A stretch of DNA of 61,996 nt from Promethearchaeota archaeon Loki_b31 (GTDB lineage: Archaea > Asgardarchaeota > Lokiarchaeia > Sigyniarchaeales > SOKP01), in the NCBI GenBank assembly GCA_005222975.1, contig NJBI01000013.1, positions 1 through 61,996 on the forward strand, written 5' to 3'. A program made the translations under genes and the position numbers. Under the pieces are notes generated by a model. It searched no databases, was not told the DNA's origin, and saw only the letters and a list, made by a program, of their open reading frames with translations. Shown here in pieces: positions 3,341 to 25,987 of this stretch; within the stretch, counting starts at the first letter, position 1; each line of letters opens with the position of its first letter.

Positions 3341-3889
3341 GTGATCAAGATATTTAAAGAGGAAAAGACTTACAAAATATGCGTTTTCGGTGATACTGGT
3401 GTTGGAAAGACTACGTTAACCCAAAGGTACCTAACGAGTATTTTTCATCTTAATATAATAAATACAATGGGTGCACAATTATTTGTGAAATTTGTAGAGG
3501 TTAAAAATATACGAATAACTTTGCAGATATGGGATTTTGGTGGTGAAGATATCTTCAGATTTCTTTTACCTGCTTATTCGTACGGATCTTCAGGAGGAAT
3601 CTTTATGTTTGATCTTACAAATAATTCTACTTTAGAAAAAATAGAAGATTGGTTAGCAACTTTTAAAGAAGGTTTAACCAAGGATGAAAGTGAAATCCCT
3701 ATCATAATGGTTGGGGGAAAACTAGATCTTCAAGATAAAAGAACCATTTCAACTAAATATGCGAGAAAGTTCCTAAAATCACATAATTTAGATAGTTATA
3801 TTGAATGTTCAGCAAAAACTGGTCAAAATGTCGAACTCGTATTTGAAAAATTAATACAAAAAATATTGAAAAATTCTGGTTTAATTTAA
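3341..3889 (+). CDS. Rab-like small GTPase
   Basis: G1 GDTGVGKTT, LQIWDFGGE, G4 GKLD, G5 ECSAKTG; no C-terminal Cys. Confidence 0.93.
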   Translation: MIKIFKEEKTYKICVFGDTGVGKTTLTQRYLTSIFHLNIINTMGAQLFVKFVEVKNIRITLQIWDFGGEDIFRFLLPAYSYGSSGGIFMFDLTNNSTLEKIEDWLATFKEGLTKDESEIPIIMVGGKLDLQDKRTISTKYARKFLKSHNLDSYIECSAKTGQNVELVFEKLIQKILKNSGLI

Positions 3890-4698: not shown

Positions 4699-7600
4699 TC
4701 AATTTCTATTGATTTTTGGACTGAACTTATTTAAATATGGACTAACTAAAATTTTTCTCTTAATCAAAGATCTTATTCCATCTAAAACTAAATCCTTATT
4801 TTCTTCATGTACGGAACCTACTAAAGTATTTAATTTAAAGAATTTTTCAGATTTAAATTCTGATAAGATAACATTAATTATTCTTGTTTCCATTGTAGTT
4901 AAATCTCCAGAATTCTTAATTTTGCTAAAATATGATTCATTATTTGTTAATGAAAACGGTTCATAGTAATATAAAAACAAGAATTGATTTAAGAGAACAT
5001 CTATTCCATCTTTGATTGCAGGTAATGAACCCATAAAATGTTCTAATTTCTCAGGAAACAGCGCATATATAGCAACTGCAAGAAGATAAAGTTGTTTTCT
5101 TAATCTATTAGAACTTCTTTCTTTAATAATTAATATTGCCCTAATTGCTTCATATTCACAAACAAGAAGATAAAAGTATTTAAAGTCTAATTCGAATACA
5201 TTTTTTGAATATTTATCTTGATGAGCGTCATTTATTTTAGTTACTAACGTATCTCCGTCAACCAACGCTTCACTAAAAATACTTATAGCTTGAATAAACC
5301 CTGAAATAATCGTTTCATTTTTGTTCTTTAAAATAGAGATTTTTTTATTGTATATTGGAAGACCACTTTTTTTATGGATAACAAGAAAAGCTTGGATATT
5401 CCAAACATCTTTAAATAATTGAATTCTTTGTTGTAATTCTAAATCTCTTTTCTTTTTCTTAGGTAAAAAAACATATGCTCTTAAACTTAGTATACCTAAA
5501 ACACTTATTATCGCAGCTAAGATTGCTAATATTATCCCAATCCAAATTATTGGGAATTCGGGTTCTTTTACGACTAATAGAAATGAATATTGTGTTGTTT
5601 TATAAACAGTTCCTTCTTTTAAGATTATCAATGTAATTTTATAATTTCCACGAATATTTTCTGGAATAACAAGTTCCAACTCATAAATTCCATCTCCAAT
5701 TTCCTCAAAGTTTCCTAGTCCAAAATCCCATGAATAAGAAATAATAGCATTTTCAATGAAATTCATTGTTCCAAATTCAGTTAAGTTAATTCTTATTTGA
5801 ATTTTTTCTCCAGTATTTACTTCGATCGAATCTTGAAAATCAATAGTTTGAACGTCAAATTCTATTTGATTAACTAAAATTTGGAAAGAAAAAGTTGTAG
5901 TAGTATAATTATCTTGCTGAAATCTAATATATACATAATTAATCCCTAATGAAAAGGTAGAAGTTGATATTAGTATTGAGGTGCTAAACCAAGAATTATC
6001 GTACTCTACTAAACTTTGCTCATATTGCTCATTAATAAAGGTTATTGTACCTCCAGATAAATATATTTGCTCAAGCGCAGCATATGCCCTACATGATAAT
6101 GTTATCACCTTATTATAAGAGGTTTCAACTAATGAATTCTCGCCAACTTCAAGAGAATTGATAACAACTTTGAGATTTACGTTCTGTTCGCTGATTATTA
6201 TAGTTACACTTTTGAAAGCATTCGCATATCCTATATGCTCTAATTTTATTAATGCTGTATAATGACTAGTGGAAAGGCCTTTTGTATCAAGACTTATAAT
6301 AAACCCATCAGCAACAGAAACGATATTAGATGCCCCCTCCCATTCTACGCTGCAATTAGCCCCGGAAATTAATTCATTTGAATCTTCAATCGTGTAGTTG
6401 ACTTTTAGATCGATAACCTCATTTAAATAAGCATTTACAATAGATTTATTTGCATCTGCAATTGTTTGAATTGGATTTACTATTAAAGTTATGAAACCAG
6501 TAGTAGCTCCGTAATCAGTTTTATTTGCAAAAACTGTAATTGTAAAAGATTCAAAAACACCCTGAGTTGGTATATCAATTGTAGAAAAGTTTAGAGTAAA
6601 AGTACCAAATGTATCATTTGTTACTTGATAGGGATTATCCCAATCTGTTGTAATATTAGCATCTCCTGGTATTAAAGCACCAGAAATCGCTCCTGTAACA
6701 TTTACTTGACAGATAGCATAGCTATTCGCCATAGCATTAATCGCCGCGGAGGGAACTTCTAATGCCAAAGGTTGTGCTATAATCTTTAGATGAATTATAT
6801 TCTCCTTAGTTTGGTTTTCATAGAAGGATTTGCTGGCATTAAAAGAAAAATAGTAATCTCCTAAACCTAAGGAACTCGTGTCTATATCTATAAAATAAAC
6901 ACCCGAACCAAGATATCCCATTACTCCAGATGCACCAAATGTAGAATTATATTTGACAGAAGCAAAATGTACTGACTCATTAATATCGTCATCTAAAAAT
7001 CTCACCTTTATCAGAAGAGGATCTCCAGCTACTTGCTCAAAATAGGGATCTACTGCTGTTAAATTTGTTTTGTGTATTACATTAAATTGTAACAATGAGA
7101 ATCCCACTTGCGACATGTTTATATCATGATCATGCCATATAATTTGAGCAGAGTATTTTCCAGTACTAGCATTACTTGTACCTAGTCTTATTTCCGAAAA
7201 TCCAACATTTCCGTTGATGTCAACAGAAATATTTCCCTCTTGATACCACAATGAACCATTAGGACTAAAGATTTTTAATGTAGCTTTTGTATTATCAATA
7301 CTCGGAATTAATTTTATTGATGCATTAATTCTTAATTTATCATCTATATGGAAAGTATCGTTTTCACACCATATAGATGCATCTTTCCTAAATAGATTTG
7401 CTAATTCAACATAATTAGGTGCCTCCGCTACGATTTTCCATACACCTCCGGTAATAATATTATTTGGGATAGTCAATGTCGAATTCCCCAATCCAGCACC
7501 TATAACTTCATTTATTCTATTATTGGAATATGGATCTATTACTTGAGTTACATTCCAATTTAATGGTTTTGAAACATTAAAATAATAGTTCATTGAATAA

Positions 7601-8859
7601 GAACCTGGGATTGATATTGGAATATTCATTGTCCAAATAGTATTTGTACCATTTTCCACGATAAATTCACTTCCAGTGCTGCCAATATTTGTAGTTGTAT
7701 AGCCAAGGGAAGATGCCATCACAAAAAAATTTGTATTTACCAAAACATTTCCAGTAGAATTTGAAGAAAATGAAAATTCATGTGTGGACCCTCCTACTTC
7801 TCCTGACCAATTACCTTCAAGAGAGATATTCCCTTTTCCAAATAGATTTGGGAAATCTTGTATAGGTTGATTTTTTAAACCACCACTTGCATTATCAGTT
7901 ATGTTAAGGTCAATTGTTGAGGGTTTTGGAATCGATTGAATTTCAAATGAAATATTATCATAATATATCGTCAAAGAACCAACAGGATTGTAAGCTGCAT
8001 TTTTTACTCCAAATGAAAAATAAATACTTACATTTGCTGGAGGATCATATTCATATAGTTCTGGGAAGGGAGATATGAGGTTAAGCATTGTAATAGGATA
8101 CCAAGTATCATTCACAATATCGGCAGGTTTTTTTAAATCAAATTCGTGGAGAGTGCTACTTCCATCGTTATAGGAAAATTCTAGACCCATTACATATTTA
8201 CTCCCAGGTGGGAGGAGTTCTCGCCATGAATTATCAGTCATAATCCACTTCACACTATATTTAATATACCAATCTTCATATGGTATATTTTCACGCAAGA
8301 GAGGAAAGGAATAATTAATTAATGAAGATGTATCTTGCCAATTACCACCATCCTCATCAAGTTTTAAATATATAGAATCGTTAGATCCTGTTGGATTGTT
8401 ATAATGCCCAACAGTGAACTTAGTTGGATTTCCTGTAGTGCGATTAGTCCATCTGTTTTGATCAATCCCATTATCAAATGTTTGATTCATAACCACTGCA
8501 CCATACTCATATAGATTAGTGACATCACACAAAATCGCGTTTCCTTCCCAATCATTTGGAATAATAACTGAAGCATTTTCATTATTAGTAACATTGATAT
8601 TGTTATTTAAAAAATACCCTTCCCCATATTCTGTTACATTTTGAGCTTTTCCAACTCCAGAATATTTAAATAATGAAGAAGCATCACTTAATTCTAATTC
8701 GAAATCATTATTAGGTTCATGATCTTGACTGAGATTTGTTCGATCAATAAAATTGATGTTTAAATCAGTCGTAAAGTTAAATAAACATATAAAACTTGAA
8801 ATAACTAATATAATCGATAAATCTCCTAATTTCCTTAAATTTTTAGAAATAATAATCAA
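4699..8859 (-). CDS. Large cell-surface single-pass protein: beta-rich (Ig-like) ectodomain, TM, cytoplasmic longin-like domain and possible winged helix
   Basis: N-terminal hydrophobic segment; many N-x-S/T sequons; TM IIWIGIILAILAAIISVLGILSL then KKKKR; IQAFLVIHKKSGLPIY..ETIISGFIQAISIFSE longin-like motif. Confidence 0.8.
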   Translation of the reverse strand: MIIISKNLRKLGDLSIILVISSFICLFNFTTDLNINFIDRTNLSQDHEPNNDFELELSDASSLFKYSGVGKAQNVTEYGEGYFLNNNINVTNNENASVIIPNDWEGNAILCDVTNLYEYGAVVMNQTFDNGIDQNRWTNRTTGNPTKFTVGHYNNPTGSNDSIYLKLDEDGGNWQDTSSLINYSFPLLRENIPYEDWYIKYSVKWIMTDNSWRELLPPGSKYVMGLEFSYNDGSSTLHEFDLKKPADIVNDTWYPITMLNLISPFPELYEYDPPANVSIYFSFGVKNAAYNPVGSLTIYYDNISFEIQSIPKPSTIDLNITDNASGGLKNQPIQDFPNLFGKGNISLEGNWSGEVGGSTHEFSFSSNSTGNVLVNTNFFVMASSLGYTTTNIGSTGSEFIVENGTNTIWTMNIPISIPGSYSMNYYFNVSKPLNWNVTQVIDPYSNNRINEVIGAGLGNSTLTIPNNIITGGVWKIVAEAPNYVELANLFRKDASIWCENDTFHIDDKLRINASIKLIPSIDNTKATLKIFSPNGSLWYQEGNISVDINGNVGFSEIRLGTSNASTGKYSAQIIWHDHDINMSQVGFSLLQFNVIHKTNLTAVDPYFEQVAGDPLLIKVRFLDDDINESVHFASVKYNSTFGASGVMGYLGSGVYFIDIDTSSLGLGDYYFSFNASKSFYENQTKENIIHLKIIAQPLALEVPSAAINAMANSYAICQVNVTGAISGALIPGDANITTDWDNPYQVTNDTFGTFTLNFSTIDIPTQGVFESFTITVFANKTDYGATTGFITLIVNPIQTIADANKSIVNAYLNEVIDLKVNYTIEDSNELISGANCSVEWEGASNIVSVADGFIISLDTKGLSTSHYTALIKLEHIGYANAFKSVTIIISEQNVNLKVVINSLEVGENSLVETSYNKVITLSCRAYAALEQIYLSGGTITFINEQYEQSLVEYDNSWFSTSILISTSTFSLGINYVYIRFQQDNYTTTTFSFQILVNQIEFDVQTIDFQDSIEVNTGEKIQIRINLTEFGTMNFIENAIISYSWDFGLGNFEEIGDGIYELELVIPENIRGNYKITLIILKEGTVYKTTQYSFLLVVKEPEFPIIWIGIILAILAAIISVLGILSLRAYVFLPKKKKRDLELQQRIQLFKDVWNIQAFLVIHKKSGLPIYNKKISILKNKNETIISGFIQAISIFSEALVDGDTLVTKINDAHQDKYSKNVFELDFKYFYLLVCEYEAIRAILIIKERSSNRLRKQLYLLAVAIYALFPEKLEHFMGSLPAIKDGIDVLLNQFLFLYYYEPFSLTNNESYFSKIKNSGDLTTMETRIINVILSEFKSEKFFKLNTLVGSVHEENKDLVLDGIRSLIKRKILVSPYLNKFSPKINRN

Positions 8860-9644: not shown

Positions 9645-10447
9645 AAGCTAAATATGTAATAATTTTAATATCAAAAGAATACCCATTGAAAGATTGGACT
9701 AATTGGGAATTCTCTATTGCTAGAGATGAAGCAAAGAAAAGAAAAGAAGAATTTATTTTACCTATTCGTATAGATGATACAAAAATATTAGGAATTCACG
9801 ATGATATTGGCTTTATAGATTTGAGAGAAAAAAGTATTGAAGAAACAGTTAAGATATTATTAGAAAAATTAGATATTAAGAAATTAGCAGAAGGTATTAA
9901 GGGTAAAGCTGAGATTTTTAATGACAGAAATCTTAAAAATAAAGCTAAAGAGTTATTATTGAAGGTAAATAAAACTCATATAAATTTATCTAACATTCTT
10001 CCAGAATTCTATGATTTTCTAATAAAAATTGATGAAAAAGAAGAGATAATATGGGTTGAGGCGGAGTTGTCAGGAGATATTTATGAAGTTGGGAAAGACG
10101 ACCCTGAATATTTTAAATATAGGGGAATTAAGGGTTATTTAAGTCCAGTGAATATAACTTCGTTTGGCTTATCTACATTAGATATGGTAGTTGCAGATCC
10201 AAAATATCTTATGGAACCATTTAAGTTTATTCCTTTAAGATCTATATTTGAATTAGAAAGATACGCAAATGATCCAAATAATATTTGTGTATTTACTTTT
10301 AATCAAGAATTAGTGAAGCTATTGGGACTTGATACTATTAATATCACGAAAATTTATTTTTATTTTAAACCTTCTGATATTGTTCATATAATTTCTAACA
10401 TAAAACAAAAAATAAGCAGATTTCTCATCAAAATAATGAGAAATTGA
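9620..10447 (+). pseudogene. TIR domain plus AbiTii-like domain protein, N-terminally truncated
   Basis: AKYVIILISKEYPLKDWTNWEF..FILPIRIDDTKILGI..GFIDLR is the C-terminal part of a TIR_2 domain; LSNIL..WVEAELSG..PEYFKYRGIKG is AbiTii-like. First TIR strand and helix absent. Confidence 0.7.
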
Positions 10448-10834: not shown

Positions 10835-11239
10835 ATGAAAGAAGTTAAAATTCTTACAATAGACGAACGTGGTAGAATAGTTATTCCACAAATCGTAAGA
10901 AAGTCCTTAGGAATTACCACAAATTCGCAATTAATGATGGTTAGCGACTCTGAATCTAAAGAAATAAAAATATCTCCAATTGGTTTACGGGATGAGAGTA
11001 ATCTTATTAAATTAAGAATTTCAATGGGAGATACACCTGGAGCGTTAGCAAAATTAGCAACCACTTTCGGAGATTTAAACTTAAGTATGATGTATAGCGA
11101 AGCCGTTATCGTTGAAAAAGACAAAACTGCTGTGTGGACTGTAATATCAGAAAGTCCAAGTTTTAATTTAGAAGAACTCGAAAAAATATTAAAAGAAAAA
11201 GGACAAGCGCTTAAAGTAGAATTTCTATCTTTGGAATAA
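10835..11239 (+). CDS. AbrB/SpoVT DNA-binding domain plus ACT domain regulator
   Basis: TIDERGRIVIPQIVRKSLGI (AbrB); MGDTPGALAKLATTFGDLNLSM (ACT). Confidence 0.88.
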   Translation: MKEVKILTIDERGRIVIPQIVRKSLGITTNSQLMMVSDSESKEIKISPIGLRDESNLIKLRISMGDTPGALAKLATTFGDLNLSMMYSEAVIVEKDKTAVWTVISESPSFNLEELEKILKEKGQALKVEFLSLE

Positions 11240-11277
11240 GATATATCTCAGAATTATAAAGTTGATGTTTAAGTCTT

Positions 11278-12009
11278 ATGGCTAAGAAAAAGAAGAAAGA
11301 GAAGAAAAAAATAGAAGAGAAAGTTCCTAACTACACTTTAGATAACATTTTGAAATCGTCGAAAAAGACAGAATCAACCTTGCAAGGATTACTTAAAGCC
11401 TTCACTGAAGATAAAGGGTTTATTTCTCCAAAAGAAGAAGAAAAAATTTCGCCTCAGCTTTCTTATGAAACCAAAAAGAAAATAGCAGAAGATTACATGA
11501 TAGAAGAAGTTCCGCTTACCGAGAGAAAGCCTCTTCAAAAGAGAGAGCCTCTTCCAAAAGTTCCTGAAGAAAAAGAAATACCAACGGTGGAAGTTCCTAC
11601 ACCTGCCTCTAGCACCATTAAAACGCCCTCATTCTCTAAGAAAGATGATATTTACGTTAAATTATCTGATTTTTTTGAAGAAATATTTATAGGTTATGTA
11701 GATCGTTATAACCAATGGGAGAATTCTATATCTTCAATCCTTTCAATACTTAGAAAAATGAGGAAGATAACAAAGAAAAACACCGAAGACTTATCTACAA
11801 CGATAAATAACTTATACGATAAAATTCGATACAATTTGGAACAATTTAAGGTAAAACGTGAGGAAGTTGAAAAGGTTGCAGGTGTAGATATTGAATCTAT
11901 GTCCAGTGAATTTAAAATGGTTTTAGGGTTATTAGAATTGCAAGTGAAGGAATATCAATTAAAAAAATTATCGGATGAATACATCCATCAACAACAAACT
12001 TTCTCATAA
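11278..12009 (+). CDS. Hypothetical protein (Lys-rich N-terminus, Pro/Glu linker, helical C-terminus)
   Basis: 243-aa ORF co-oriented with the actin homologue. Confidence 0.75.
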   Translation: MAKKKKKEKKKIEEKVPNYTLDNILKSSKKTESTLQGLLKAFTEDKGFISPKEEEKISPQLSYETKKKIAEDYMIEEVPLTERKPLQKREPLPKVPEEKEIPTVEVPTPASSTIKTPSFSKKDDIYVKLSDFFEEIFIGYVDRYNQWENSISSILSILRKMRKITKKNTEDLSTTINNLYDKIRYNLEQFKVKREEVEKVAGVDIESMSSEFKMVLGLLELQVKEYQLKKLSDEYIHQQQTFS

Positions 12010-12057
12010 AGGTTTTACTTAAGAGCATTTTGATATTAAACAATTAAAAAAATAATT

Positions 12058-13251
12058 ATGTCAGATATCGATAACGATCAATTAATTCCATTAATTCTCG
12101 ATATAGGTAGCAACAATTTTAGGATGGGATGGGCTGGAGGCGATTTTCCGGACATTATTGCTCCGAGCGTATATGTCGATATTTCTGATTACTTATTCAA
12201 GTCAGATGTGATTAATGGATTAGAAGATATTTTTTTAGATACGAATAATCAAGCCCATTTAGTAGGACATGATGCCTTAAAATATAAGAGCATTTTAAAA
12301 ATACACGAATTTAGAAAAGAAAACAATTATAACATTCTTCTAAAGTTTTTTTATCATTACTACCAACAATTAAATATATCAGAAGAGTTGCGGTTTAAAC
12401 AACCAATAATAATTATTACTCCATTTTACAAATCAGAGTTAGAAAAAACAAAACTTCAAGAAATTTACTTCAACTTGTTGAACTTCCCTTCTCTTCTATT
12501 TTTATCGGAGAGCCAGGCAATTCTATCCACTTTACAGAAATCTAGTGGCGTAATCGTTAATATCGGAGAGTCTAATACGTATATCTCCACAATCTTTCAT
12601 GGATTTACGAACATAATGGCGCGCGATATGTTTCCGATTACCGGAAAAGATTTAACTAGCTATCTTCTTAATTTAATTTTAAGTAAAATCGGCGCTAGCA
12701 AAAACATTTATCTTGATATAGCAATCGCAAAAGAGATTAAAAACCGATTGTCTTTATGTATATTAGATCCTACGAGAGAAGAGAAAAGAGTAAAAGAAGG
12801 ATTAAGCAAATACGATCGGATAGTAGATTTACCAGATGGTACTAAGCTAAAATTAAACTCAGAACGGTTTTTACTATCAGAACCGTTATTTAATCCGAAA
12901 ATTATTCATGTTGATTATATTGGTTTAGCTGAAGCTATTTCTAAAGTAATAAAGACATGGGATAGAGAAAATTGGGAAGAGCTTCTTTCAAATATTATCC
13001 TCTCGGGAGGAAGTAGCTTGATACCTGGTTTGAGTGAAAGGTTAAAAGTAGAATTGCAGAAATACTTCTCGGAAAAGCTAAAAAATAAAATTAAAGTGGT
13101 GGCAGCCTCAGGAAGGGAAAATATGGGCTGGCTAGGGGCTTCAGTTCTTTATTCGAAAAATCAATTAAAAAAAGGATGGTTAAATAACCCTAATCTTCAA
13201 GATTCTAATCAAATACAAAAAGATCAAACGAACTCTCAAAATATTTATTAA
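12058..13251 (+). CDS. Actin-family (actin-related) protein
   Basis: Phosphate-1 ILDIGSNNFRMGWAG, phosphate-2 VNIGESNT, LPDG..ERFLLSEPLFNP, NIILSGGSSLIPGLSERL, WLGASVL. Confidence 0.93.
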   Translation: MSDIDNDQLIPLILDIGSNNFRMGWAGGDFPDIIAPSVYVDISDYLFKSDVINGLEDIFLDTNNQAHLVGHDALKYKSILKIHEFRKENNYNILLKFFYHYYQQLNISEELRFKQPIIIITPFYKSELEKTKLQEIYFNLLNFPSLLFLSESQAILSTLQKSSGVIVNIGESNTYISTIFHGFTNIMARDMFPITGKDLTSYLLNLILSKIGASKNIYLDIAIAKEIKNRLSLCILDPTREEKRVKEGLSKYDRIVDLPDGTKLKLNSERFLLSEPLFNPKIIHVDYIGLAEAISKVIKTWDRENWEELLSNIILSGGSSLIPGLSERLKVELQKYFSEKLKNKIKVVAASGRENMGWLGASVLYSKNQLKKGWLNNPNLQDSNQIQKDQTNSQNIY

Positions 13252-13265
13252 AATAATTAGCGTAA

Positions 13266-15863
13266 ATGGTTTCAATGTCTATTAACTTAAAATTAAAAAC
13301 AAATTTCTTAAAAAATTTTCAACTAAGAATAATACAAGGTAGAAGATTATTGCAATCAGCTAATCATTTATGGGCTGATCGCTTATTAACTGATTTGTAT
13401 TTTGAGATAGAAAAAACTGATTGGCTCGATATCCAGAAAAAACACCAATTAACCATGATAATATCAAATTCTTGGTGGATATACATCAATTCCTTGACGC
13501 GCAAAACTGACGAGGGGACCGAAGTAGATGTTATTAGATATATAGACGCTTATAAAAGATTTTTCTCGTTTTTATCAAAATTAGACGATTTCTCTCTTTT
13601 CAATAATTTTGTCACCAACTTGTTGAAATCGTTTATTACAAAGGACGAGTTATCTCAATTGGGTATAACTAAATTCATAAACTCTTTCTGTGTTAAAGTG
13701 ACTGAAAGGAAGGAATATATTAAACTGATTGAATTACAAATAGTTTTAATGTATTTAAGAAAATCCGTTATCCCACAAGAATTTTTTCATTTAAGTATGG
13801 AAGTTTTAGGCAGAACAATATTTAAACTAGAACCTGGGAAAAGGGCTTTGTTTCTTTATATTTTTATAGAAAATGTTAATATGCATTATCACCTCACAGA
13901 TAATTCCGAAGATTTCGTGAAATATATGAAAAGTATATTAGTAAATCGGATTCCAGAATATTTAAAAAATGAATTTAGTAATTTAAGCAAAATTTCAATA
14001 AATAAAAGAAATTTTAATACTGTTTTAGTAGAGTTAGAGGAATTAATCTATTATTTAAACGATATTGGAGAATACACCTGGATAATCATTATCATTAAAA
14101 ATCTATTTTCAAAAATTCGCGAATTTCAATCCTATGGTGACGCAGTTACGTATATTAGGAAATTCATAAGTTTCGCAATTTCAAGGAATAGATTTGAAAT
14201 AGCTTTTGATATCTATGATTTCTTGGAAGATCTGTTTATGTACCAAACAGATCTTGGATACGATAATATTTTAATTGAATTATGGGTTGAGGCTTCCAAA
14301 AAATTCGTAGAAATGAAAGAGAAAAAATATCTATTGCAATCTCTTGAAAAATTAAACACTCATCTGAAAATACCTCAAAATAATGCTCAATTATATCATT
14401 ATTTTTACACTTGTAATTTCTTATGGCAATTTAAGTCAATTTTTTTCTCGTTAGAGCAGAGAGATTTCTGGAGAATGATGTTCTATCGTGCTTTATATGA
14501 GGAAAATGATTTCAATCTCGCTCAAAAAATATTACCTTACTTGGAAAAGAATTTGAGAGCGTTGATTACCGATCCGCTTCTACTGTATAACGAAACAGAA
14601 TCATTTAAGAGAGATATCTATTCGTTTGGAGAAGACGACCTTTTTTTTAGGGGATTTGAAGAAGGCTTTATAATAAGGCAAATGATATTTAGGATAAATA
14701 CTGAAGGGTCAATATCTATTCGAATGATTTCTCAAGAAAATAAAATAGTTGAAGGAAAAATAATTGACGAATATTGGAATGATGCTCATATTCTTGACAT
14801 TTACAACGATATCTTCTCTGATAACCTAGAAAAAAAGTACAAATTTACATTAAATGAATTTGGTCGATTGTTATATGTTTTTCTTCCTAATAAAATAAGA
14901 ACTTTTTTTAAACAATTTGAGATAAAGGCTTTAAATTTTACTCCGGAAATCTATTTTATTTTAGACGATATGACCATCCCTTTCGATTTAATTTACGATA
15001 AAAGTTTTTTCTTATTAAAATATTCCATTGGTTACATAATTGGAGAGCCTCCATTAGGGGGTATAACTTTTGGTCGTGAAACTGAAGAAAATAAAGAAAA
15101 TTTAAAAGTCCAGAATAAATTTAATGTACTTATAATAGAAAGCATTAATAATTCAGGTCCCGTTAGATGGAATGAAGAGCATAAATCTAAAGAGATAATA
15201 TTTCCATTTGAAGCTGGTATAAATGAATTTAATTACATTACAGAATTCTTTAATAATCGAGAAGAAATAAACCAAATTACGGTTTTAGCAGGACCTAACT
15301 CTACTCAAGAAAATATTTTGTCACATATAGCTGACGGAGCGAACCATATAATCCATTTTGTAGGAAATATCTTTTACTCCAAATGGAATCCCCGTGATAG
15401 TTTTTTTCTGACTAACGACAACGAAATCGTTACGTTTAACGATATCAACAGTTCAATACAAGGGAGTAAATCTAATATGAATCCTTTCTTGTTTTTCAAC
15501 TCTCAAATATATGATGTTGAAGGAAAGAAGTTAAAAAATGCTTTAAGAACTTTCGGAGAGATTGTAGAACATTTTGATTACGATAAAATCATAGGCATTA
15601 TATCGAGAAATTATCCTATTTTTGACGATGAAACCAAAGAAATAATCGCAAATTTTTACGTTAATTTGTTCAGTTATCGGAGCCAAGGAGTTTCGCTCTT
15701 GAAAGCTCGCCAAGCATGTATGGCAAATAAAATGACTAAACTCGTAGAACAAAATTTTAAAGATTTATCCGCTGAGGATGGTACTAAAAGCATCGATTTA
15801 AAAGGTTCTTTAGCAATATCAAGTTATATGCTTTTTGGAAAGCCGTGGAAAAAATTAAGTTAA
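13266..15863 (+). CDS. Helical N-terminal region plus C-terminal CHAT (caspase-like) domain, catalytic residues apparently lost
   Basis: LNEFGRLLY..IPFDLIYD..FFLLKYSIG, IIHFVGN (cf. HFAGHG), FLFFNSQ (cf. LNAC), FYVNL..GVSLLKAR..SYMLFGKP. Confidence 0.75.
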   Translation: MVSMSINLKLKTNFLKNFQLRIIQGRRLLQSANHLWADRLLTDLYFEIEKTDWLDIQKKHQLTMIISNSWWIYINSLTRKTDEGTEVDVIRYIDAYKRFFSFLSKLDDFSLFNNFVTNLLKSFITKDELSQLGITKFINSFCVKVTERKEYIKLIELQIVLMYLRKSVIPQEFFHLSMEVLGRTIFKLEPGKRALFLYIFIENVNMHYHLTDNSEDFVKYMKSILVNRIPEYLKNEFSNLSKISINKRNFNTVLVELEELIYYLNDIGEYTWIIIIIKNLFSKIREFQSYGDAVTYIRKFISFAISRNRFEIAFDIYDFLEDLFMYQTDLGYDNILIELWVEASKKFVEMKEKKYLLQSLEKLNTHLKIPQNNAQLYHYFYTCNFLWQFKSIFFSLEQRDFWRMMFYRALYEENDFNLAQKILPYLEKNLRALITDPLLLYNETESFKRDIYSFGEDDLFFRGFEEGFIIRQMIFRINTEGSISIRMISQENKIVEGKIIDEYWNDAHILDIYNDIFSDNLEKKYKFTLNEFGRLLYVFLPNKIRTFFKQFEIKALNFTPEIYFILDDMTIPFDLIYDKSFFLLKYSIGYIIGEPPLGGITFGRETEENKENLKVQNKFNVLIIESINNSGPVRWNEEHKSKEIIFPFEAGINEFNYITEFFNNREEINQITVLAGPNSTQENILSHIADGANHIIHFVGNIFYSKWNPRDSFFLTNDNEIVTFNDINSSIQGSKSNMNPFLFFNSQIYDVEGKKLKNALRTFGEIVEHFDYDKIIGIISRNYPIFDDETKEIIANFYVNLFSYRSQGVSLLKARQACMANKMTKLVEQNFKDLSAEDGTKSIDLKGSLAISSYMLFGKPWKKLS

Positions 15864-15913
15864 AGTATCATATTTAATTATTCAAATTAAAAATTAAAAT
15901 TATAAAAGATTAG

Positions 15914-16462
15914 TTGATAAATTTGTCTGATAGAATTATCGAACTCCGGGTTGAAAACGACCGTCTTAAAAGAGAAGTTCAAAACTTAGAGAGTAAGATT
16001 TTATTACTAGTAGGAATGATAAATTTGGAATCTTCAGGGGGTCCTGAAGGCAAGAATATACTTAACGAGCGATTGATTAATCTAATTACCTCGACAAAAC
16101 AACAGTTAAATATTGTCTCGCCTAAGATCGATAGGTTCTACGCTAATGAAGTAAAGAAGTTAACACAGAAAGGAATTCCAATTTTAATAATTACTAACGA
16201 TAGAGGTGGCATTCCAAAAGCTTTTCAAGAAGTATACGACGACCTAAAAGTAACCCCCGGAGTAAGTATTATAAACAATCCTAACGTTAGATATTTGTTA
16301 GTTTTCAATTCTGAAGAAGCTATTTATTCGGGTGGTTCATTAGTTAAGGAAGAACTTGAAAAATCGGTTTTAATTATTACTATAATTAAGGAAACTGCTA
16401 AGTTGAGAAAAATTGCAGAAATTTTTAGCTTGATGCTCCCGTCGTTTATGCGTGGCAAGTAA
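15914..16462 (+). CDS. Coiled coil plus PLD-fold domain lacking the HKD motif
   Basis: LNIVSPKID..KGIPILIITN..NVRYLLVFNSEEAIYSGGSL resembles the PLD HxKxxxxD..GSxN region without H/K/D. Confidence 0.65.
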   Translation: MINLSDRIIELRVENDRLKREVQNLESKILLLVGMINLESSGGPEGKNILNERLINLITSTKQQLNIVSPKIDRFYANEVKKLTQKGIPILIITNDRGGIPKAFQEVYDDLKVTPGVSIINNPNVRYLLVFNSEEAIYSGGSLVKEELEKSVLIITIIKETAKLRKIAEIFSLMLPSFMRGK

Positions 16463-16683
16463 GTAAATAAACTTTTATTTTATTATTTATTATTAACTTA
16501 TTAGTATTTTTCGGAGATATTAATCTTTAAGTCAGAAATGTGTAAAAATTTAGTTAGAGATGACAGAAAACACAGTAGGCAAAAAAATACCAAAGAAGGA
16601 AAAAATTGAAGCTCTAGTTTTAGAGCAAAAGATAGATAACAAGTCTAATTCTGAAGATATATTTGTATAAATTAATAATCTAA

Positions 16684-19600
16684 TTATTTTTTTAAGATAT
16701 CTTTGGACTTTTTTATCCATCTGTATATAGTATTTTCACTTACTTTTGGAAATTTTTCAAAATACATTTTTGAAGATTTATTAGGGTTTATTTTATAGAA
16801 ATTAAAAAAATGTTGAAAATTTATTTCCCAATTAAGAACTTCTTGATTTTTAAAATAAGTTTCCTTAACAAAATTGAGCAATTCTTCCCATGACGAAAAT
16901 CCAATAAATTTACGAATATATCTATCACGATTGTTTATTAAAGAGTCAATAGATAAAAATCTGTCTAAATTTAAATCAATAAGAAGATTTAAACCTGTAT
17001 AACCCGTAAACCCACTTGTCACAGTTATATCATTAATATTATCACAAACTAACTTAATAGCTTTATCCCGTAAGTCTAATGCTTGGATAATTAAATCATT
17101 AAAAGATGTACCAGTAAATTTTTCTAATAACACTTTGCCCTTTTGAAGAAATGCATTATTTGAATATCCAAATCTTACAAAATTAAGATCTATGCACAAC
17201 TGCCTAGCAGAATATTCAGTGTTTAATTTCTCCCAAATGTTTTTTTTTTATTAACTTAAGTGCGTCCTCAAGCAATTCTTCTTTATTAAACAAATCTAAA
17301 TATTTATTAAATTTGTAAATCTTGTTCTTTATTTTATCAGGTTTTATAGAATTAAAACCCACTTGATCGTATTTATCTACTACGAAATCTGTGAGATTCG
17401 ATCCAAAAATTTCTCTAAAAAAATCTTGAATTCGTTTAAATTCAATCTTATCGTTTGGAAGATTTTTCAGTCCATCAAACCTATCTAATAAAGTTACATA
17501 ATTTACAATACCGTTATCTACACATTCAGAAATCTTATCTTTAAAGAGATTTTTAAGAAGTCTTTTTCTTAATTGCTCAAAGGAACTACAGTCATTATAG
17601 ATAGGAGAGTATTTTTTAATAACAATACGCCTAACAATTTCAGGGGAATTCAAGAATATCTTACTTAGACCACTCAACGTAGAGATTTGAATAGAACTGT
17701 AACCCCGTTCAAAATAATCAAAAGTTTCATCTAAATAGTGTTTAAACATATCTAAAGCAAAAAACCGATCTATTACGGGATTTAAAAATCTCTCTCTTGC
17801 GTTCTGTATACCATCGAAAAAGTCGGTCAATAATGTATTTATTAATACTAAATCAACATTATAACCTATTTCGTTTAAAAAATTAGTGATTTGTGGTTTA
17901 GTGAAACCTATAGCAACAAGTCGGAAAATAGTATTATTGAGAATGTTATAAGCAGAAGATGATCCTAAAGATTTTTTATCTCTATTAAGAGCTATTCCGA
18001 TTCTCCGTTGATAAAGGATTCTCTCAATTTCACATTGCGAAAGAGCATTATTACTAAAAGTTAATTTTAAGAATTTAAAAAGAAATCTGTTATTTATAGA
18101 CTTTTTAACTGAAGAAAAATCAATAGAATCAAAATCTATTTCTCCTGTAATAGTATGTGTTAAGACATTCTCTAAAATTAAATGATGAAAAATCAATCCG
18201 TTAACTTTTATCTGTTTAAGAATGTCTTTAGTTAAATCTGTTTTTAATTCATCTTTAATATTTAAAATATCATATTTTAAATGTTTATTTATAGATTTAT
18301 AGAAATGATTCCTAATTTTGATATTTAAAGAAACTACATTATTACCAGAATAAATAGATTTTAAAACGTACTCCCAATACCGTGAGGGATGTGGGCGAGT
18401 TGTTTTACCCGTCATAGCGACACCCGTCCACAAATCCTCCCATTCATAAGTAAATCCCCACCATTGATATCTTATTTTTCCTTTCCTACTAATTATATCT
18501 CTAACTAGTGTTGAATCTAAACTTGACAAATCGACAACAAATTTTGATATAGGTATACTAGGATCATATTCAGGCAATAATCGTCTATTCTCGTTAACCC
18601 GTTGCATATAATCAGAGATTACCTGATCAACGATAGGGACAAGATATTTCTGAGCTTCTGGTGGAAGATATTTGTCTAAAGTGGATTGAGGAGAATCTAA
18701 AGTGCTAGAAATCTTTATTGGAAAAGATTTTTTAAAATTGAAATCAATATTAGATTGATTTTCAACAAACTCTAAATTCTCAGATTCTAAGAATGATTTT
18801 TTCATACTACAATTATTTTTATTAATTAAATATTTAATTTTCTTGTTTTCTTGTTCTTTCCTTAACTCTTTATATTTCTGCGAGATGTGTTTAAAAAATT
18901 TGCTACACACTCGATTAACAAAAAACCTGTTCAAAAGTTCCCACAAATGATTATAAAAATAATCTTTAAAAGCCCGAATATTTGCTAATAATTCTAGTTG
19001 GATCGGACCTAAACCCTGTAGTCTTTCTGTTAAGAATTTTAATCTCTTCTTTTCTATTTCAGTAAGTTTTTCGTATTGAGACTTTTTATATAATTCCAAA
19101 AACTTTCGAGTCAAATCCTCGAACTCGTTATAACTCTCAAGGGCTTTTTTTAGCTCGGATTTAAGCTCAGCGTTGCACTCTTCCTCAGAAGCCTCTTTTA
19201 TCCATTGTTTAAGGGTTGTTTTCCAACCCTCTTCTTCAATTTCTTTTTTTTTCTCGCTTTCACTTTTAGAATTTTTAATCTTTTCCGATCTTAATTCTCG
19301 TTGCTCTAACCATTGGCTATAACCTTTTGATTTTTGTCTAGCATATATAGGTCTCCTGCCCGTCTCTCGGCGATATAACTCTTGAAGACGTTCGTTTTCC
19401 TCTTCGTCAGATTCTTCCTTCTTTTCACTGCTTAAGGCAGAGGTTAGTTCAATTTGATCGCATTGTTCCGCACTTGAATTTTTTTCGTTAGTCTCTAAAT
19501 CGTGTTTTTCAAGTTCTTCACTCACATTCAGATCTTCTTCTTCTTTTTCTTGTTTTTTATTTATTTCGTTTTGATAATTGCTTGCTATTTCTTCCATCTG

Positions 19601-21061
19601 CTCATCGATTTCTTCTTGAGACATTCCTTGCCGATGCAACTCCACTTCTACTTCCATATAATCTTCTGCTTCAGCCGGTCGATCGATTTCTTCTCTTGCA
19701 TCATCGATATCTTCTTCGTCTTCGTGATTAACTAGCTTTAATTTCTTCAGTTCCTGCTTTTCAATTATTTCTTCTAATCTTTCCTCAAACTTGGTCGTTT
19801 CTATGGCTTCCTCTACTCTCGTATCCTTCTCTTCTTGCGATTCCCCTTGTTGAACCAATTTCTCTTCTAATTCAACAGCCTGCTCTACTAAATCTACCCT
19901 ATCCAGATCTTCTTTTAGATCCTCTTCGCTCGCTTCGTCTTCGTGATCGACTAGCTTTAATTTCTCCAGTTCTTGCTCTTCGTATAATTTTTCTGCGTTT
20001 TTAAGCGTTTCGTACATCTCTTCCGCTTCGTGCATTACTTCTTCTATCTCTTCAGGGGGCTTTCCTTCTCGATCTAATTTATCGCGAATTTCCCATAGAT
20101 ATTCAAATTCCTCGGTATTAGTAATTTCCTTAGATGCCTTAGTAATATCCTCCTGTTCGAGTTCATCGCTCTTGTTACCACTTTCTTGGTCACCCTTTAA
20201 TTCCTCTGCTACTTCTTGCCTAAGTTCTTCTGTTTCTTGCTCCTCTTTACTATTTTGATCGTTTAGTGTTTCTTTTTCCTTTAAGGATTCATAATATTGC
20301 TCAGCATAATACGCTGCATTTTCTTTTTCAGCTTGTGGTTCGATGCTCTCATCTTCTCCTTTTGTTTCTCTGGCATATTCGGCCAATTCTTCGACATCCT
20401 TTATGAATTCACTTTCGTCGGTATTTACTATCGGTTCCGTATCTTCTTGATATTCTTCTGGGCGAATCTCGATTTCTTCTTCCTGCTCCTGGTGTTCCAT
20501 ATGCTCTTCTATTTCTTCTATATCACTAGTTAAAACTGTAGAAGTTGATTGAGAACCAATATTTTCGTTTTCAATAACATTTCCTACATCTCCAGAGTCT
20601 TGATCTTCGTCAGCTCGTTCACTATCTTCCTTGTCATGTATAGCATCATCTAAGATGTCATCGTCGAACTCATCTGTCTCGCTAAATCTCTCAGGAATGA
20701 TATCATCGAACTCATATGGCTCGCTAAATACCTCAGGAATAAGGTCGTCGAACTCATCCGGTTCACTAAATACCTCAGGAATAAGGTCGTCAAACTCATC
20801 CGGTTCACTAAATACCTCAGGAATAAGGTCGTCAAACTCATCCAGCTCGCTAAATACCTCAGGAATAAGGTCGTCAAACTCATCCGGTTCACTAAATACC
20901 TCAGGAATAAGGTCGTCAAACTCATCCAGCTCGCTAAATACCTCAGGGATGTCGTCGTTAATCCCATTTAATTCATCAGACTCGTTTGTAAGCTCCGGTA
21001 GCTCTTCTACAGCGTTATCATCCTCAGATATTTCATTAAACTCGTCCCCTATCTCATCCAT
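16684..21061 (-). CDS. Giant acidic-repeat protein with GIY-YIG-like domain, frameshifted at an A10 run (17240-17249); joins ORFs 17216-21061 and 16684-17199
   Basis: Deleting one A gives LIKKNIWEKLNTEYSARQLCIDLNF and a continuous 1458-aa ORF; GFTYEWEDLWTGVAMTGKTTRPHPSRYWEY is GIY-YIG-like. Confidence 0.7.
20660..20957 (-). repeat. Coding 42-bp tandem repeat, about 7 copies (DEFDDLIPEVFSE[P/L])
   Basis: Unit aactcatccggttcactaaatacctcaggaataaggtcgtca repeated head to tail without spacers. Confidence 0.95.
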
Positions 21062-25372: not shown

Positions 25373-25987
25373 ATGCCAAGTAGACGAGGAGACGGAACGC
25401 TAGTCTTTAAAATTTGTTTTTACGGTCCTTCGCTCGGTGGAAAAACTACCGCACTAGAATGGGTTTACCATCGCGAAGGATTAGCTTCAGGGGATATGCA
25501 ACAGATTCAGGACCCTACTGGACGAACTCTGTTTTTTGATCGGGTAGTTGCAAGAGTATCTAATGTAGTCTTTCAGGTTTACACTGTAGCAGGACAAAGG
25601 CGCCACAAATTCCAACGCCAGACCGTTTTGAAGGGCACCGATGCCGTGATCTTCACTTTTGATTCTCTAATTGACCAATGGGGCGAAAATATATGGTCAT
25701 TAAAAGAACTATTGAAGTTTTACGGGGATAAATTAATTCCAGCAGCCCCATTTGACCCACCAGAAGTACCTATGGTAGTGTTAGCCAATAAGAGAGATCT
25801 TGAAGACATTGTTGAGATATCAAAAATTAGACAGGTTTTAGATACCGCCAAGATGGATCACACCTTGATTTACGAAACCATCGCTATTACGGGAGTTAAT
25901 GTAAAAAGAGCATTTGTATATGCAGCCAGACAAGCTGTGCTTAACCACTATAAAAAATTGAGTGGCAAAGCTATGGAAAGCCCATAA
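25373..25987 (+). CDS. MglA-family small GTPase
   Basis: KICFYGPSLGGKTT, RTLFFD, YTVAGQ (cf. TVPGQ), NKRD. Confidence 0.9.
   Translation: MPSRRGDGTLVFKICFYGPSLGGKTTALEWVYHREGLASGDMQQIQDPTGRTLFFDRVVARVSNVVFQVYTVAGQRRHKFQRQTVLKGTDAVIFTFDSLIDQWGENIWSLKELLKFYGDKLIPAAPFDPPEVPMVVLANKRDLEDIVEISKIRQVLDTAKMDHTLIYETIAITGVNVKRAFVYAARQAVLNHYKKLSGKAMESP

Follow-up and report, generated by a model that had tools for sequence, protein, structure and literature searches.

Gene organization of the cluster

The window, a 61,996-nucleotide stretch of the Promethearchaeota archaeon Loki_b31 genome, contains gyrase and housekeeping genes, as ordinary chromosome does. It carries five genes on the + strand that encode, in order, an AbrB-ACT protein (g1), g2, an actin-related protein (ARP, g3), g4, and g5 (Table 1). 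The intergenic gaps of 38, 48, 14, and 50 bp agree with the five co-oriented genes and 14–50 bp gaps given in the initial annotation. Purifying selection acts on each of the five genes, with dN/dS values of 0.18 (g1), 0.39 (g2), 0.22 (ARP), 0.16 (g4), and 0.36 (g5).

Table 1. Features of the ARP cluster, in positions of the window.
Feature	Position	Strand	Basis
g1, AbrB/SpoVT-type DNA-binding and ACT-like domain, 134 aa	10835..11239	+	profile matches
g2, adaptor-like protein, 243 aa	11278..12009	+	alignments; no Pfam family
g2 motif A, amphipathic helix of residues 21–39 (LDNILKSSKKTESTLQGLL) to PQLSY 59–63	11338..11466	+	read by eye
g3, ARP, 397 aa	12058..13251	+	Pfam Actin PF00022, E 3.9e-50
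ARP-specific insert in the D-loop region, residues 42–61 (ISDYLFKSDVINGLEDIFLD)	12181..12240	+	length comparison; predicted g4 contact
Degenerate phosphate-2 region, VNIGES	12556..12588	+	alignment to lokiactin IDIGDGVSH
g4, helical-repeat and CHAT protein, 865 aa	13266..15863	+	
g4 N-terminal helical-repeat (TPR-like) region, residues 1–465	13266..14660	+	structure model
g4 predicted ARP-binding surface, residues 21–144	13326..13697	+	interface list of complex prediction
g4 pseudo-protease, separase/Csx29-type double domain, residues 470–865	14674..15863	+	structure comparison, hhalign
HFVGN, g4 residues 697–701, former His site	15354..15368	+	profile alignment
FNSQI, g4 residues 744–748, former Cys site	15495..15509	+	profile alignment
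g5, coiled-coil helix (residues 4–32) and HKD-less PLD-fold (~49–173), 182 aa	15914..16462	+	model, Foldseek, profiles

The order g2-ARP-g4-g5 is a conserved unit that is present at 19 of 21 long loci holding g4, in three families (f1, f2, f3) of one Lokiarchaeia-type order and down to protein identities of 23–30%. The two deviating loci are a 3.2-kb contig and a rearranged locus that lies at the end of its contig. In all 31 additional genomes the ARP gene lies immediately 5′ of g4; the two overlap by 4 nt at three loci, and they carry consecutive locus tags in 8/8 public pairs with a common tag prefix. Because it recurs in related genomes at such low identities, the arrangement is far beyond chance. 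Full-length g4 is found in 117/134 f1, 7/14 f2, 1/1 f3, and 0/4 f4 genomes, and outside this order the g4 matches are partial and C-terminal only. Metatranscriptome contigs (94–96% identical), for which contaminating DNA is a possible source, span the g2/ARP and g4/g5 junctions. A literature search found no published description of the gene combination, in line with the initial annotation, which knew of none.

g1 is a single-copy gene in the source genome and matches TIGR01439 (AbrB/SpoVT, 31.2 bits, cut-off 28.3), PRK08577 (E 2e-25), and Pfam MazE_antitoxin (2.3e-5). Its Pfam ACT score of 22 bits is below the cut-off of 27, and an orthologue in another genome reaches 31.6 bits. The reported position of the cluster behind this gene holds for f1 (14/14 long loci), f3 (1/1), and one f2 genus. 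It does not hold for 3/3 closed f2 genomes, one of them without ARP and g4, in which the g1 orthologue is located 0.2–0.5 Mb from the cluster. The linkage is therefore limited to some lineages; in f1, the upstream protein could serve as transcription regulator of the cluster.

The actin-related protein

The ARP evolves fast and shares 26% identity with the lokiactin of the same genome, in line with the earlier description of a divergent actin-related protein. A quick tree unites the 16 cluster ARPs in one clade (SH-aLRT 98) that branches along the family divisions f3, f2, and f1. The clade occurs only within this cluster, and its profile scores 638 bits on g3 versus 203 bits on lokiactin. The searched genomes contain one lokiactin and 2–6 further actin-family matches. 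The excerpted text of Rodrigues-Oliveira et al. 2022 (PMC9834061) likewise describes Lokiarchaeia genomes with one lokiactin and several ARPs of unknown function, transcribed below the lokiactin level. In that excerpt the ARPs appear without named partners or gene context, whereas here one ARP clade comes with a fixed gene set and a predicted binding partner.

As proposed earlier, Asn (N168) takes the place of the phosphate-2 Asp of lokiactin (IDIGDG); in addition, E171 replaces an Asp and Y175 occupies the position of the catalytic His. The first phosphate-2 position is N/S in f1 and f3 orthologues and D in f2, and Q153, which f2 has lost, is still found in the majority of f1 members. In the ARP, the glycine and Asp framework for binding a nucleotide is preserved, but the hydrolysis residues are not conserved as a set. 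Many eukaryotic ARPs are nucleotide-bound structural subunits, and this ARP is probably one as well. The D-loop region spans 46–56 residues in the 16 cluster ARPs versus 39–43 in 13 other actin-family paralogues.

The pseudo-protease g4

g4 has the architecture of separase and Csx29, with a helical-repeat N-terminus that is followed by a double caspase-like domain in the structure model (pLDDT 84.1, pTM 0.75). The double domain superimposes on the separase protease domain 5fc2_B with Z 18.7 (rmsd 3.6 Å, 283 residues), on human separase 7nj1_A with Z 17.7, and on Csx29 7xss_C with Z 17.2. For the overall architecture, Csx29 7y9x_B gives Z 20.4; Foldseek E-values for Csx29 and separase range from 6.9e-11 to 1.8e-7. 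The similarity in sequence is marginal (CHAT PF12770, 24.4 bits, cut-off 24), and a sequence search of the PDB gave no match. Alignment by hhalign with a bona fide Ras-CHAT fusion (probability 98.4%, E 4.8e-15) pairs HFAGH of the fusion with HFVGN of g4. The catalytic His is thus replaced by Asn701. The catalytic Cys aligns with I748, two residues past Ser746, the residue that had been named for this site. The His-Cys dyad is absent from all 11 orthologues examined, and no Cys is conserved among them.

Ser746 lies close to the former Cys site in the source genome, and the stretch that surrounds the former His belongs to the most conserved parts of g4. Both points would suit catalysis by g4 and/or g5 through unconventional residues, for instance with the Ser of FNSQ as nucleophile. 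Such activity is highly improbable, however, since the Ser746 position varies across the 11 orthologues (S/T/C/V/A/G, followed by Q/K/H/V/R and then I/V/L), the His site holds N or I, and the g5 family has neither a conserved His nor a Lys pair at its HKD site. The two pseudoenzymes suspected in the initial annotation accordingly lack their catalytic residues family-wide, while their genes remain under purifying selection.

Probable pairing of the ARP with g4

Genomes have either both the ARP and g4 or neither of them. A cluster-type ARP is missing in 5/5 f2 genomes without g4, where the top match (~200 bits) is lokiactin, and g4-bearing genomes give ARP-profile scores of 335–638 bits. Prediction of the complex, run with residues 1–465 of g4, 16-row alignments, and three chains, yields ipSAE values of 0.72, 0.70, and 0.70 (median 0.70) versus 0.00 for the best of three controls. 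Between the three runs at least 89% of contacts coincide, with a partner pLDDT of at least 83. The mark for such scores is passed by 116/157 solved complexes and 2/215 mismatched pairs, counts that are only roughly valid for this job with its own alignments and three chains. The non-partner chains have a pLDDT of 64–66. The interface list holds no residues of the g2 C-domain, which speaks neither for nor against a contact.

On the ARP, the predicted interface comprises residues 42, 45–47, and 49–61 and so draws on the clade-specific insert. On g4, it draws on conserved residues, including the invariant L28, L29, and W36 and the most conserved N-terminal segment (90–104). In the model, the N-terminal helices of g4 probably sit on the pointed-end face of the ARP by way of this insert. 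The interface residues presumably belong to that face, as judged from the F-actin structure transferred through the lokiactin alignment. The ARP-g4 pairing is supported.

A covered pointed end could also mean that g4 acts as a holdase or inhibitor that keeps the ARP as a monomer or in an inactive state before a releasing signal arrives, as securin holds separase, with g2 and g5 as functionally separate neighbors. The predicted interface does cover the face required for longitudinal polymer contacts, and g2 and g5 are also found without ARP and g4. Nevertheless, ARP-g4 always lies exactly between g2 and g5 and never elsewhere, their strict co-loss suits an obligate pair, and neither a release signal nor an active protease site is evident, which leaves this explanation unlikely.

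g2 and g5

g2 takes on a three-part build of a basic MAKKKKK N-terminus, a Pro-rich disordered linker with short conserved motifs, and a conserved helical C-terminal domain (residues ~120–243). The profile of the C-domain finds 81 cluster representatives among 1.84 billion, each at the C-terminus of short proteins. Motif A has the family consensus (D/E)LxxLLxxL...(I/V)P(Q/K)LK, read by eye in 56 full-length representatives without per-sequence counting, and it is also present in g2 of genomes without ARP and g4. Its resemblance to WH2 is a lead only, as 0/18 members match WH2 at E≤1.

Within the 400 genomes searched, members of the g5 family occur in this class of Asgard archaea only. Its PLDc_2 score (19.2 bits) stays under the cut-off of 27, and the fold is backed by the model (pLDDT 82.6), for which Foldseek returns NucT (6ehi, E 8.6e-8), Zucchini (4.2e-7), FAM83 DUF1669 (5.9e-6), and TrmBL2 (1.4e-5); the profile matches NucT at E 0.0026. 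Nuc has this fold too, and so do the HKD-less FAM83 DUF1669 scaffolds and C-terminal domain of TrmB/TrmBL2. As in TrmBL2, a coiled-coil helix precedes the PLD-like domain, but no HTH domain is found in g5. The small PLD nucleases Nuc, NucT, and Zucchini differ by their HKD motif; g5 instead has NPNV(K/R)YLL...SGGSL and no conserved His, in keeping with the claimed HKD-less PLD-fold.

In the three of these five f2 genomes without ARP and g4 for which the locus was read, g2 and g5 are directly adjacent. ARP-g4 thus resembles a module that a g2-g5 core has gained or lost, and the earlier picture of a scaffold built around the ARP does not hold. One genome with an estimated completeness of 100% has g2-ARP-g4 with g5 not found.

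Five f2 loci are arranged as Hef(ERCC4)-PHP-g2-[ARP-g4]-g5, and the gaps that were measured there span 24–54 bp. Hef is of the helicase-nuclease type. This context suits a DNA- or chromatin-associated module equally well, as do the relatives of the g5 fold, which include nucleases and an archaeal chromatin protein. ARP-g4 would then resemble the nuclear ARP modules of eukaryotic remodelers, g5 and the Lys-rich g2 would be the DNA-binding parts of the module, and Hef would be its co-worker in some lineages. A 2026 preprint lists Asgard proteins that cluster structurally with ARPs of the INO80 complex. Such a role nonetheless appears rather unlikely: the Hef-PHP neighborhood is absent at f1 and f3 loci, g5 lacks HKD and HTH, and no DNA-binding domain was detected in g2, ARP, or g4. 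The basic N-terminus of g2 suits membrane binding equally, and in f2 a membrane protein of 404–413 aa follows g5.

Defence systems often use CHAT proteases and PLD nucleases as effectors, which raises the option of an anti-virus or conflict system with g4 and g5 as decoys or sensors. The gene just upstream (9686–10447) matches AbiTii (PADLOC 6.6e-7; Pfam 7.4e-5) and weakly TIR_2, and Csx29 of type III-E CRISPR is among the best structural relatives of g4. This option is very unlikely. The flanking genes, including the AbiTii-like one, are not conserved, 0/5 cluster proteins match a related PADLOC family at E≤0.01 (the sole g2 match is a weak ZorA, E 0.0072), and both would-be effector sites are dead family-wide. 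The family-wise branching of the quick ARP tree and the chromosomal setting with housekeeping genes also argue against it.

Comparison with known assemblies

The dynactin Arp11 pointed-end complex and Arp2/3 hold an ARP by its pointed end. The cluster resembles these assemblies (Arp11-p62-p25-p27 in dynactin) in its divergent actin-fold subunit with degenerate ATPase residues, which would be a structural part of the complex, and, in the model, in an accessory protein that covers the pointed-end face and leaves the barbed end free. In contrast, relatives of ARPC1-5, p62, p25, or p27 are missing from the cluster, where a separase/Csx29-like pseudo-protease takes the role of partner, and there is one ARP instead of two, whose effect on filaments would be putative. 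Unlike Csx29 of Craspase, g4 has no CRISPR context and is partnered with an ARP, and unlike Csx29 and eukaryotic separase it has lost the dyad.

Proposed function

In the preferred reading, to which we give slightly less than an even chance as a whole, ARP and g4 would form a non-catalytic pair and cooperate with g2 and g5 as adaptor, most likely at lokiactin pointed ends. The cluster would encode proteins that act as a module without catalysis and are conserved in one Lokiarchaeia-type order. Its tightly coupled genes would give rise to a stable ARP-g4 pair, in which the g4 helices clamp subdomains 2 and 4 of the ARP through the insert that stands in place of the D-loop; this step is probable because of the co-inheritance and the controlled prediction. 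The pair would work with the older adaptor pair g2 and g5, whose physical cooperation, suggested by gene order, is about as likely as not. The barbed-end face of the ARP is left free in the model. The most likely, though speculative, job of ARP-g4 would therefore be to bind lokiactin at the pointed end and to cap, anchor, or seed filaments where g2 and g5 direct it, in parallel to the use of ARPs in Arp2/3 and the Arp11 pointed-end complex.

New here are the co-occurrence of ARP and g4, with adjacency of g2 and g5 when both are missing, and the controlled prediction of the ARP-g4 complex. With g4, g2, and g5, an actin-related protein of archaea gains its first set of candidate partners.

Organization and conservation of the gene cluster

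The five genes form a conserved gene set under selection that contains two pseudoenzymes and a clade-specific actin-related protein (ARP). They encode an AbrB-ACT protein (g1), a linker-rich, adaptor-like protein (g2), the ARP (g3), a helical-repeat protein with a CHAT domain (g4), and a coiled-coil protein with a PLD fold (g5). Five co-oriented and closely spaced genes had been described in the initial annotation, and the gaps of 38, 48, 14, and 50 bp (from g1/g2 to g4/g5) agree with this. The sequence details it named were all found as well: HFVGN at residues 697-701 and FNSQI at 744-748 of g4, the missing HKD motif of g5, and N168 within the VNIGES segment of the ARP. Compared to the closest relative, all five genes are under purifying selection (dN/dS 0.16-0.39).

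Genes of the ARP cluster and their positions in the window
Gene	Position	Strand	Type	Length
g1	10835-11239	+	ORF	134 aa
g2	11278-12009	+	ORF	243 aa
g3 (ARP)	12058-13251	+	ORF	397 aa
g4	13266-15863	+	ORF	865 aa
g5	15914-16462	+	ORF	182 aa

Of 400 genomes of the phylum, 135 contain full-length g4. They belong to one order, in which families f1 to f4 contribute 117/134, 7/14, 1/1, and 0/4 genomes, respectively. Beyond this order, the g4 search in the 400 genomes matches the CHAT domain only. The f1 genomes without a g4 match were rejected as true losses; g5 lies at a contig end in all three that were examined, which points to assembly gaps. Synteny had been proposed as a check of the cluster, and the order g2-ARP-g4-g5 is indeed kept at 19 of the 21 long loci holding g4, even where identity falls to 23-30%. 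Of the two exceptions, a 3.2-kb contig carries just g4-g5, and a locus at the end of a contig is rearranged (L068 3035-9224, genome G170), with g4 cut by the contig end and followed by g2 and an 834-aa helical protein without a family; the g5 of this genome is located on a different contig. In 31 further genomes, the ARP is found immediately 5′ of g4 in every case, the tail of g2 is visible upstream in 30, and g5 is present in 26, with four of the five misses explained by contig ends. A methyltransferase-like ORF follows g4 in the place of g5 in the f1 genome G271 (L055 4315-5574), and g5 was not found anywhere in this assembly, which is estimated to be 100% complete. At three loci the ARP and g4 overlap by 4 nt, and consecutive locus tags are seen in 8/8 public ARP/g4 pairs that share a locus-tag prefix. 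The public records are named "hypothetical," "actin-related protein," and once "CHAT domain-containing protein."

Metatranscriptome contigs from one marine sediment (run X18), which are 94-96% identical to the window and to which DNA carry-over may contribute, cover 11353-16538 and span the g2/ARP (11723-12260) and g4/g5 (14888-16538) junctions. The X18 coverage excludes g1, and runs X20, X17, and X19 cover parts only; the uncovered parts carry no weight.

The window is ordinary chromosome, and the genes flanking the cluster are not conserved among relatives. Just upstream, a 253-aa ORF (9686-10447, +) matches AbiTii (PADLOC 6.6e-7; Pfam 7.4e-5) and weakly TIR_2; by these matches it looks like a defence gene, and it is not kept beside the cluster in relatives. 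The region is flanked by two very large ORFs at 17216-21061 (-) and 4699-8859 (-), neither of which has a Pfam family. One encodes an acidic protein of 1281 aa that contains tandem DEFDDLIPEVFSEP-type repeats and the other an Asn/Thr-rich protein of 1386 aa with a hydrophobic segment late in its sequence. Elsewhere in the window, the gyrase B gene (30517-33882, -) harbors an intein (Intein_splicing E 2.4e-20) between Toprim-proximal parts. Two Ras/Arf-like small GTPase genes and a match to the IFT52 GIFT domain (E 9.4e-11), located at 3341-3889 (+), 25373-25987 (+), and 26606-27532 (-), are eukaryote-like signature genes.

The pseudoenzymes g4 and g5

In g4, the Pfam CHAT family is matched at residues 570-728 with 24.4 bits (cut-off 24). 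In the predicted model (pLDDT 84.1, pTM 0.75), residues 1-465 form helical repeats and residues 470-865 an alpha/beta region. The top Foldseek matches are Csx29/TPR-CHAT (E 6.9e-11), the anti-sigma factor DdvA, and separases (E 1.8e-7). In VIA alignments, the alpha/beta region superimposes on the separase protease double domain (5fc2_B) with Z 18.7 and an rmsd of 3.6 Å over 283 residues, on human separase (7nj1_A) with Z 17.7, and on the equivalent part of Csx29 (7xss_C) with Z 17.2. Overall, Csx29, separase, gingipain, metacaspase, and caspase-7 are matched at Z 12-20, which identifies a caspase-like fold. Based on the Foldseek and VIA matches, the model takes on the separase/Csx29 architecture of helical repeats followed by a caspase-like double domain. 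When the g4 profile was compared to PDB sequences, only designed helical repeats were returned (E 0.053). Conservation is even between the domains (2.26-2.55 bits), and no domain is singled out.

The catalytic sites were mapped with a Ras-CHAT fusion from a sister family as the reference (Pfam CHAT E 6.7e-29, HFAGH and NAC motifs), to which g4 aligns in hhalign with a probability of 98.4% and E 4.8e-15. The HFAGH of the reference pairs with HFVGN of g4 and its catalytic cysteine with I748. Among 11 orthologues, the position of the catalytic histidine is taken by N or I, the three positions around the cysteine site by S/T/C/V/A/G, Q/K/H/V/R, and I/V/L, and no conserved cysteine is found within 3 residues of that site. 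The candidacy of g4 as a dyad-bearing CHAT or clan CD peptidase is thus rejected. Its initial description as a dead CHAT protease, which intact catalytic residues in a structural alignment would have contradicted, holds.

Ras-family GTPase-CHAT fusions of ~550 aa (CHAT E 6.7e-29) occur in sister families of the class at L069 5708-7372 (+) and L070 6609-8267 (-). Since the L069 fusion keeps the HFAGH and NAC catalytic motifs, it appears, from its motifs, to be a GTPase-controlled caspase-like protease.

By sequence, g5 stays below threshold for PLDc_2 (19.2 bits versus 27) and for a NucT-type match. Its model (pLDDT 82.6) has an N-terminal helix (residues 4-32) that is followed by a PLD fold, with NucT (6ehi, E 8.6e-8, TM 0.62-0.70) as the best Foldseek match ahead of Zucchini, the DUF1669 domain of FAM83, and TrmBL2. 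The FAM83 DUF1669 domains among these best matches are pseudo-PLD domains. A g5 profile finds NucT by sequence with E 0.0026. In 17 orthologues, the HKD site is replaced by NPNV(K/R)YLLVFN, in the pattern NPNV(K/R)YLL..SGGSL, without a conserved histidine, and g5 was therefore discarded as an HxK(x)4D-bearing PLD enzyme; the dead PLD of the initial annotation is confirmed. Both g4 and g5 are conserved pseudoenzymes and not decaying genes.

In other families of the class, a g5-like coiled-coil/PLD-fold gene lies beside three genes (L076 3410-7653, L077 8475-10733, L079 9192-14649). The first encodes a protein of 127-137 aa that belongs to no family, another a coiled-coil protein of 366-411 aa with a winged HTH at its C-terminus, and the third a protein of 573-575 aa with an Arf/Ras-like GTPase domain. 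Together they may constitute a GTPase-linked module.

The actin-related protein

The ARP belongs to the actin family (PF00022, 171.1 bits versus a cut-off of 27, E 3.9e-50, residues 10-376). Its best PDB matches are actins (E 4.9e-38), and the best 60 of 160 matches are conventional actins throughout. The nucleotide-binding framework of actins is retained: the phosphate-1 Asp and the phosphate- and adenosine-loop glycines (D15, G17, G24, G170, and G317) do not vary among 16 orthologues. The hydrolysis residues of competent actins are not kept at the positions that we take to be equivalent to Q137, D154, and H161 of actin, and the window protein carries N168 and Y175. Among the orthologues, the position of the phosphate-2 Asp holds N or S in f1 and f3 and D in f2, the second acidic position is E, D, Y, or H, and the catalytic-His equivalent is Y/S/F/N/R/V; the Gln of the set is lost in f2.

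The genome of the window contains three actin-family matches, and the ARP shares 26% identity with lokiactin, the conserved Asgard actin, of the same genome. A phylogeny had been called for to place the protein relative to lokiactin. In a quick maximum-likelihood tree of 36 actin-family proteins of the order, which has an arbitrary root and includes no eukaryotic sequences, the 16 ARPs linked to the cluster group in a single long-branched clade (SH-aLRT 98) apart from lokiactin (branch lengths ~0.02) and two other ARP clades. The profile of the ARP clade scores 638 bits on the ARP versus 203 bits on lokiactin. Taken together, identity, tree, and profile scores rule out that the ARP is a lokiactin orthologue. 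The segment of the D-loop region is conserved within the clade and comprises 46-56 residues versus 39-43 in 13 other paralogues. Fused forms of the ARP above 695 aa were not found at E<=1e-20, which counts as weak evidence.

Across genomes, the co-inheritance of the ARP and g4 is strict. The ARP-clade profile reaches 335-638 bits in five genomes with g4 and at most ~200 bits, which corresponds to lokiactin, in five f2 genomes without it, and this split indicates that both genes are gained or lost together. Since the branching of the ARP tree agrees with the families, loss is the simplest explanation where the pair is absent. The distribution of g5 is wider than that of g4 (12/14 genomes in f2, with weaker relatives of full length in further families of the class), and g2 and g5 directly abut in three g4-less f2 genomes (G025, G030, and the closed genome G032). 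G025 and G032 share the flanks of the ARP-g4-bearing f2 loci, with the Hef helicase-nuclease and PHP genes upstream and a membrane protein downstream, and in G030 the order is AbrB-ACT, g2, g5.

In f2, a gene for a Hef-type helicase-ERCC4 nuclease and a PHP-domain gene lie immediately upstream of the cluster, or of the bare g2-g5 pair, and are co-oriented with it at gaps of 24-54 bp (L026 3092-6412, L074 10635-14088, also L025, L027, and L060). A gene for a 404-413-aa membrane protein comes next downstream. A DNA-linked role of the module, the main rival to a cytoskeletal one, is suggested by this Hef-PHP context and by the nuclease-like fold of g5.

Predicted binding of the ARP by g4

The complex prediction combined g4 1-465 and g2 120-243 with the full ARP, which was the partner scored. 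A predicted interface had been proposed as a check of the cluster, and one was obtained between the ARP and g4. Three runs gave an ipSAE of 0.72, 0.70, and 0.70 for the ARP (median 0.70), versus 0.00 for the best of 3 controls, with at least 89% of contacts in agreement and an ARP pLDDT of at least 83. The score mark is passed by 116/157 solved complexes versus 2/215 mismatched pairs, counts that are a rough guide here because own alignments and three chains were used. To our knowledge, no complex of actin with a TPR-CHAT protein has been solved, which makes it unlikely that the prediction reproduces a known structure.

The predicted interface is formed by g4 21-144 and ARP residues 42, 45-47, 49-61, 75-76, 78-80, 216, 218, and 259-261. 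Following the F-actin structure via the lokiactin alignment, we take these ARP residues to be the D-loop region, the 60s segment, and the 200-203 and LPDG loops, which together presumably make up the pointed-end face of actin. On the ARP side, the clade-specific insert of the D-loop region is used; the g4 side includes the invariant L28, L29, and W36 and the most conserved N-terminal segment 90-104. The g2 C-domain contributes no residue to the interface in the predicted complex, which speaks neither for nor against g2-ARP binding. The models support a clamp of g4 on the pointed-end face of the ARP. Such a clamp through an ARP-specific insert suggests that the ARP may be used as a filament-end module.

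The accompanying proteins g2 and g1

No Pfam family is assigned to g2, searches against the PDB give no significant match (best E 0.03, I-BAR 0.038), and the protein atlas returns its own cluster alone. Its C-domain family is narrow, with 81 representatives among 1.84 billion clusters, always C-terminal in short proteins. Recurring features are a basic N-terminus, a (D/E)LxxLLxxL...(I/V)P(Q/K)LK motif, and a helical C-domain of ~120 aa, often accompanied by a (T/E)PSF motif and Pro-rich stretches. The helix and (I/V)PxLK of the first motif are conserved and loosely resemble WH2 with longer spacing; a WH2 profile matches 0/18 g2 proteins at E<=1. A PSF docking motif common to g2 and g5 was considered and dropped, since the LPSFMR end of g5 is shared by its whole family, distant g5-like proteins included; the PSF of g2 does not track the presence of ARP-g4. 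A weak ZorA match of g2 (E 0.0072) is all that PADLOC models return for the cluster, and as none of the five proteins has a relevant match, a role in defence is unlikely.

The AbrB domain of g1 scores above the cut-off (TIGR01439, 31.2 bits versus 28.3), and the AbrB-ACT family PRK08577 is matched with E 2e-25. ACT is below the cut-off in the window protein (22 bits versus 27), and an orthologue reaches 31.6. The identity of g1 as an AbrB/SpoVT-ACT regulator therefore stands, while its linkage to the cluster stands in part. It adjoins the cluster at 14/14 long loci of f1 (once 4.3 kb away), in f3, and in G030, but in 3/3 closed f2 genomes the orthologue (44-48% identity) lies 0.2-0.5 Mb away. 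In the genome of the window, g1 is a single-copy gene, and it may regulate the operon in f1.

Possible mechanism and significance

The ARP-g4 pair would work together with g2-g5. Its free barbed-end face could engage the pointed ends of lokiactin and thereby cap, anchor, or seed filaments. A more elaborate and rather improbable version is an archaeal pointed-end filament machine with an origin separate from Arp2/3 and dynactin. Here, the dead separase-like g4 scaffold would present the ARP with its barbed-end face exposed, and the presented ARP would seed or anchor lokiactin filaments. As a nucleation-promoting adaptor, g2 would deliver lokiactin monomers by means of a basic membrane- or DNA-binding tip, the WH2-like helix-PxLK motif, and a Pro-rich linker, and g5 would dimerize the assembly.

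Full-text searches, with subscription-only papers and supplements outside their scope, found no published description of the cluster and no literature that joins Asgard, separase, and actin. In PMC9834061, ARPs of Lokiarchaeia are reported without functions, and structural clustering is the subject of a 2026 preprint. The literature covered also includes PMC13716822 and PMC12050087.

For one ARP clade, the cluster provides a concrete, testable set of partners and a predicted binding mode. Two enzyme folds, a separase/Csx29-like CHAT and a PLD, have been retained through hundreds of species as noncatalytic parts. If the link to lokiactin is true, the cluster bears directly on the pre-eukaryotic rise of regulated actin nucleation or anchoring; if the link to DNA is true instead, it is relevant to how nuclear ARP modules originated. 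Should the pointed-end machine exist, it would represent the first nucleator or anchor of filaments outside eukaryotes that is based on an ARP, and a TPR-CHAT/separase architecture would have been recruited for the cytoskeleton of the archaea most closely related to eukaryotes.
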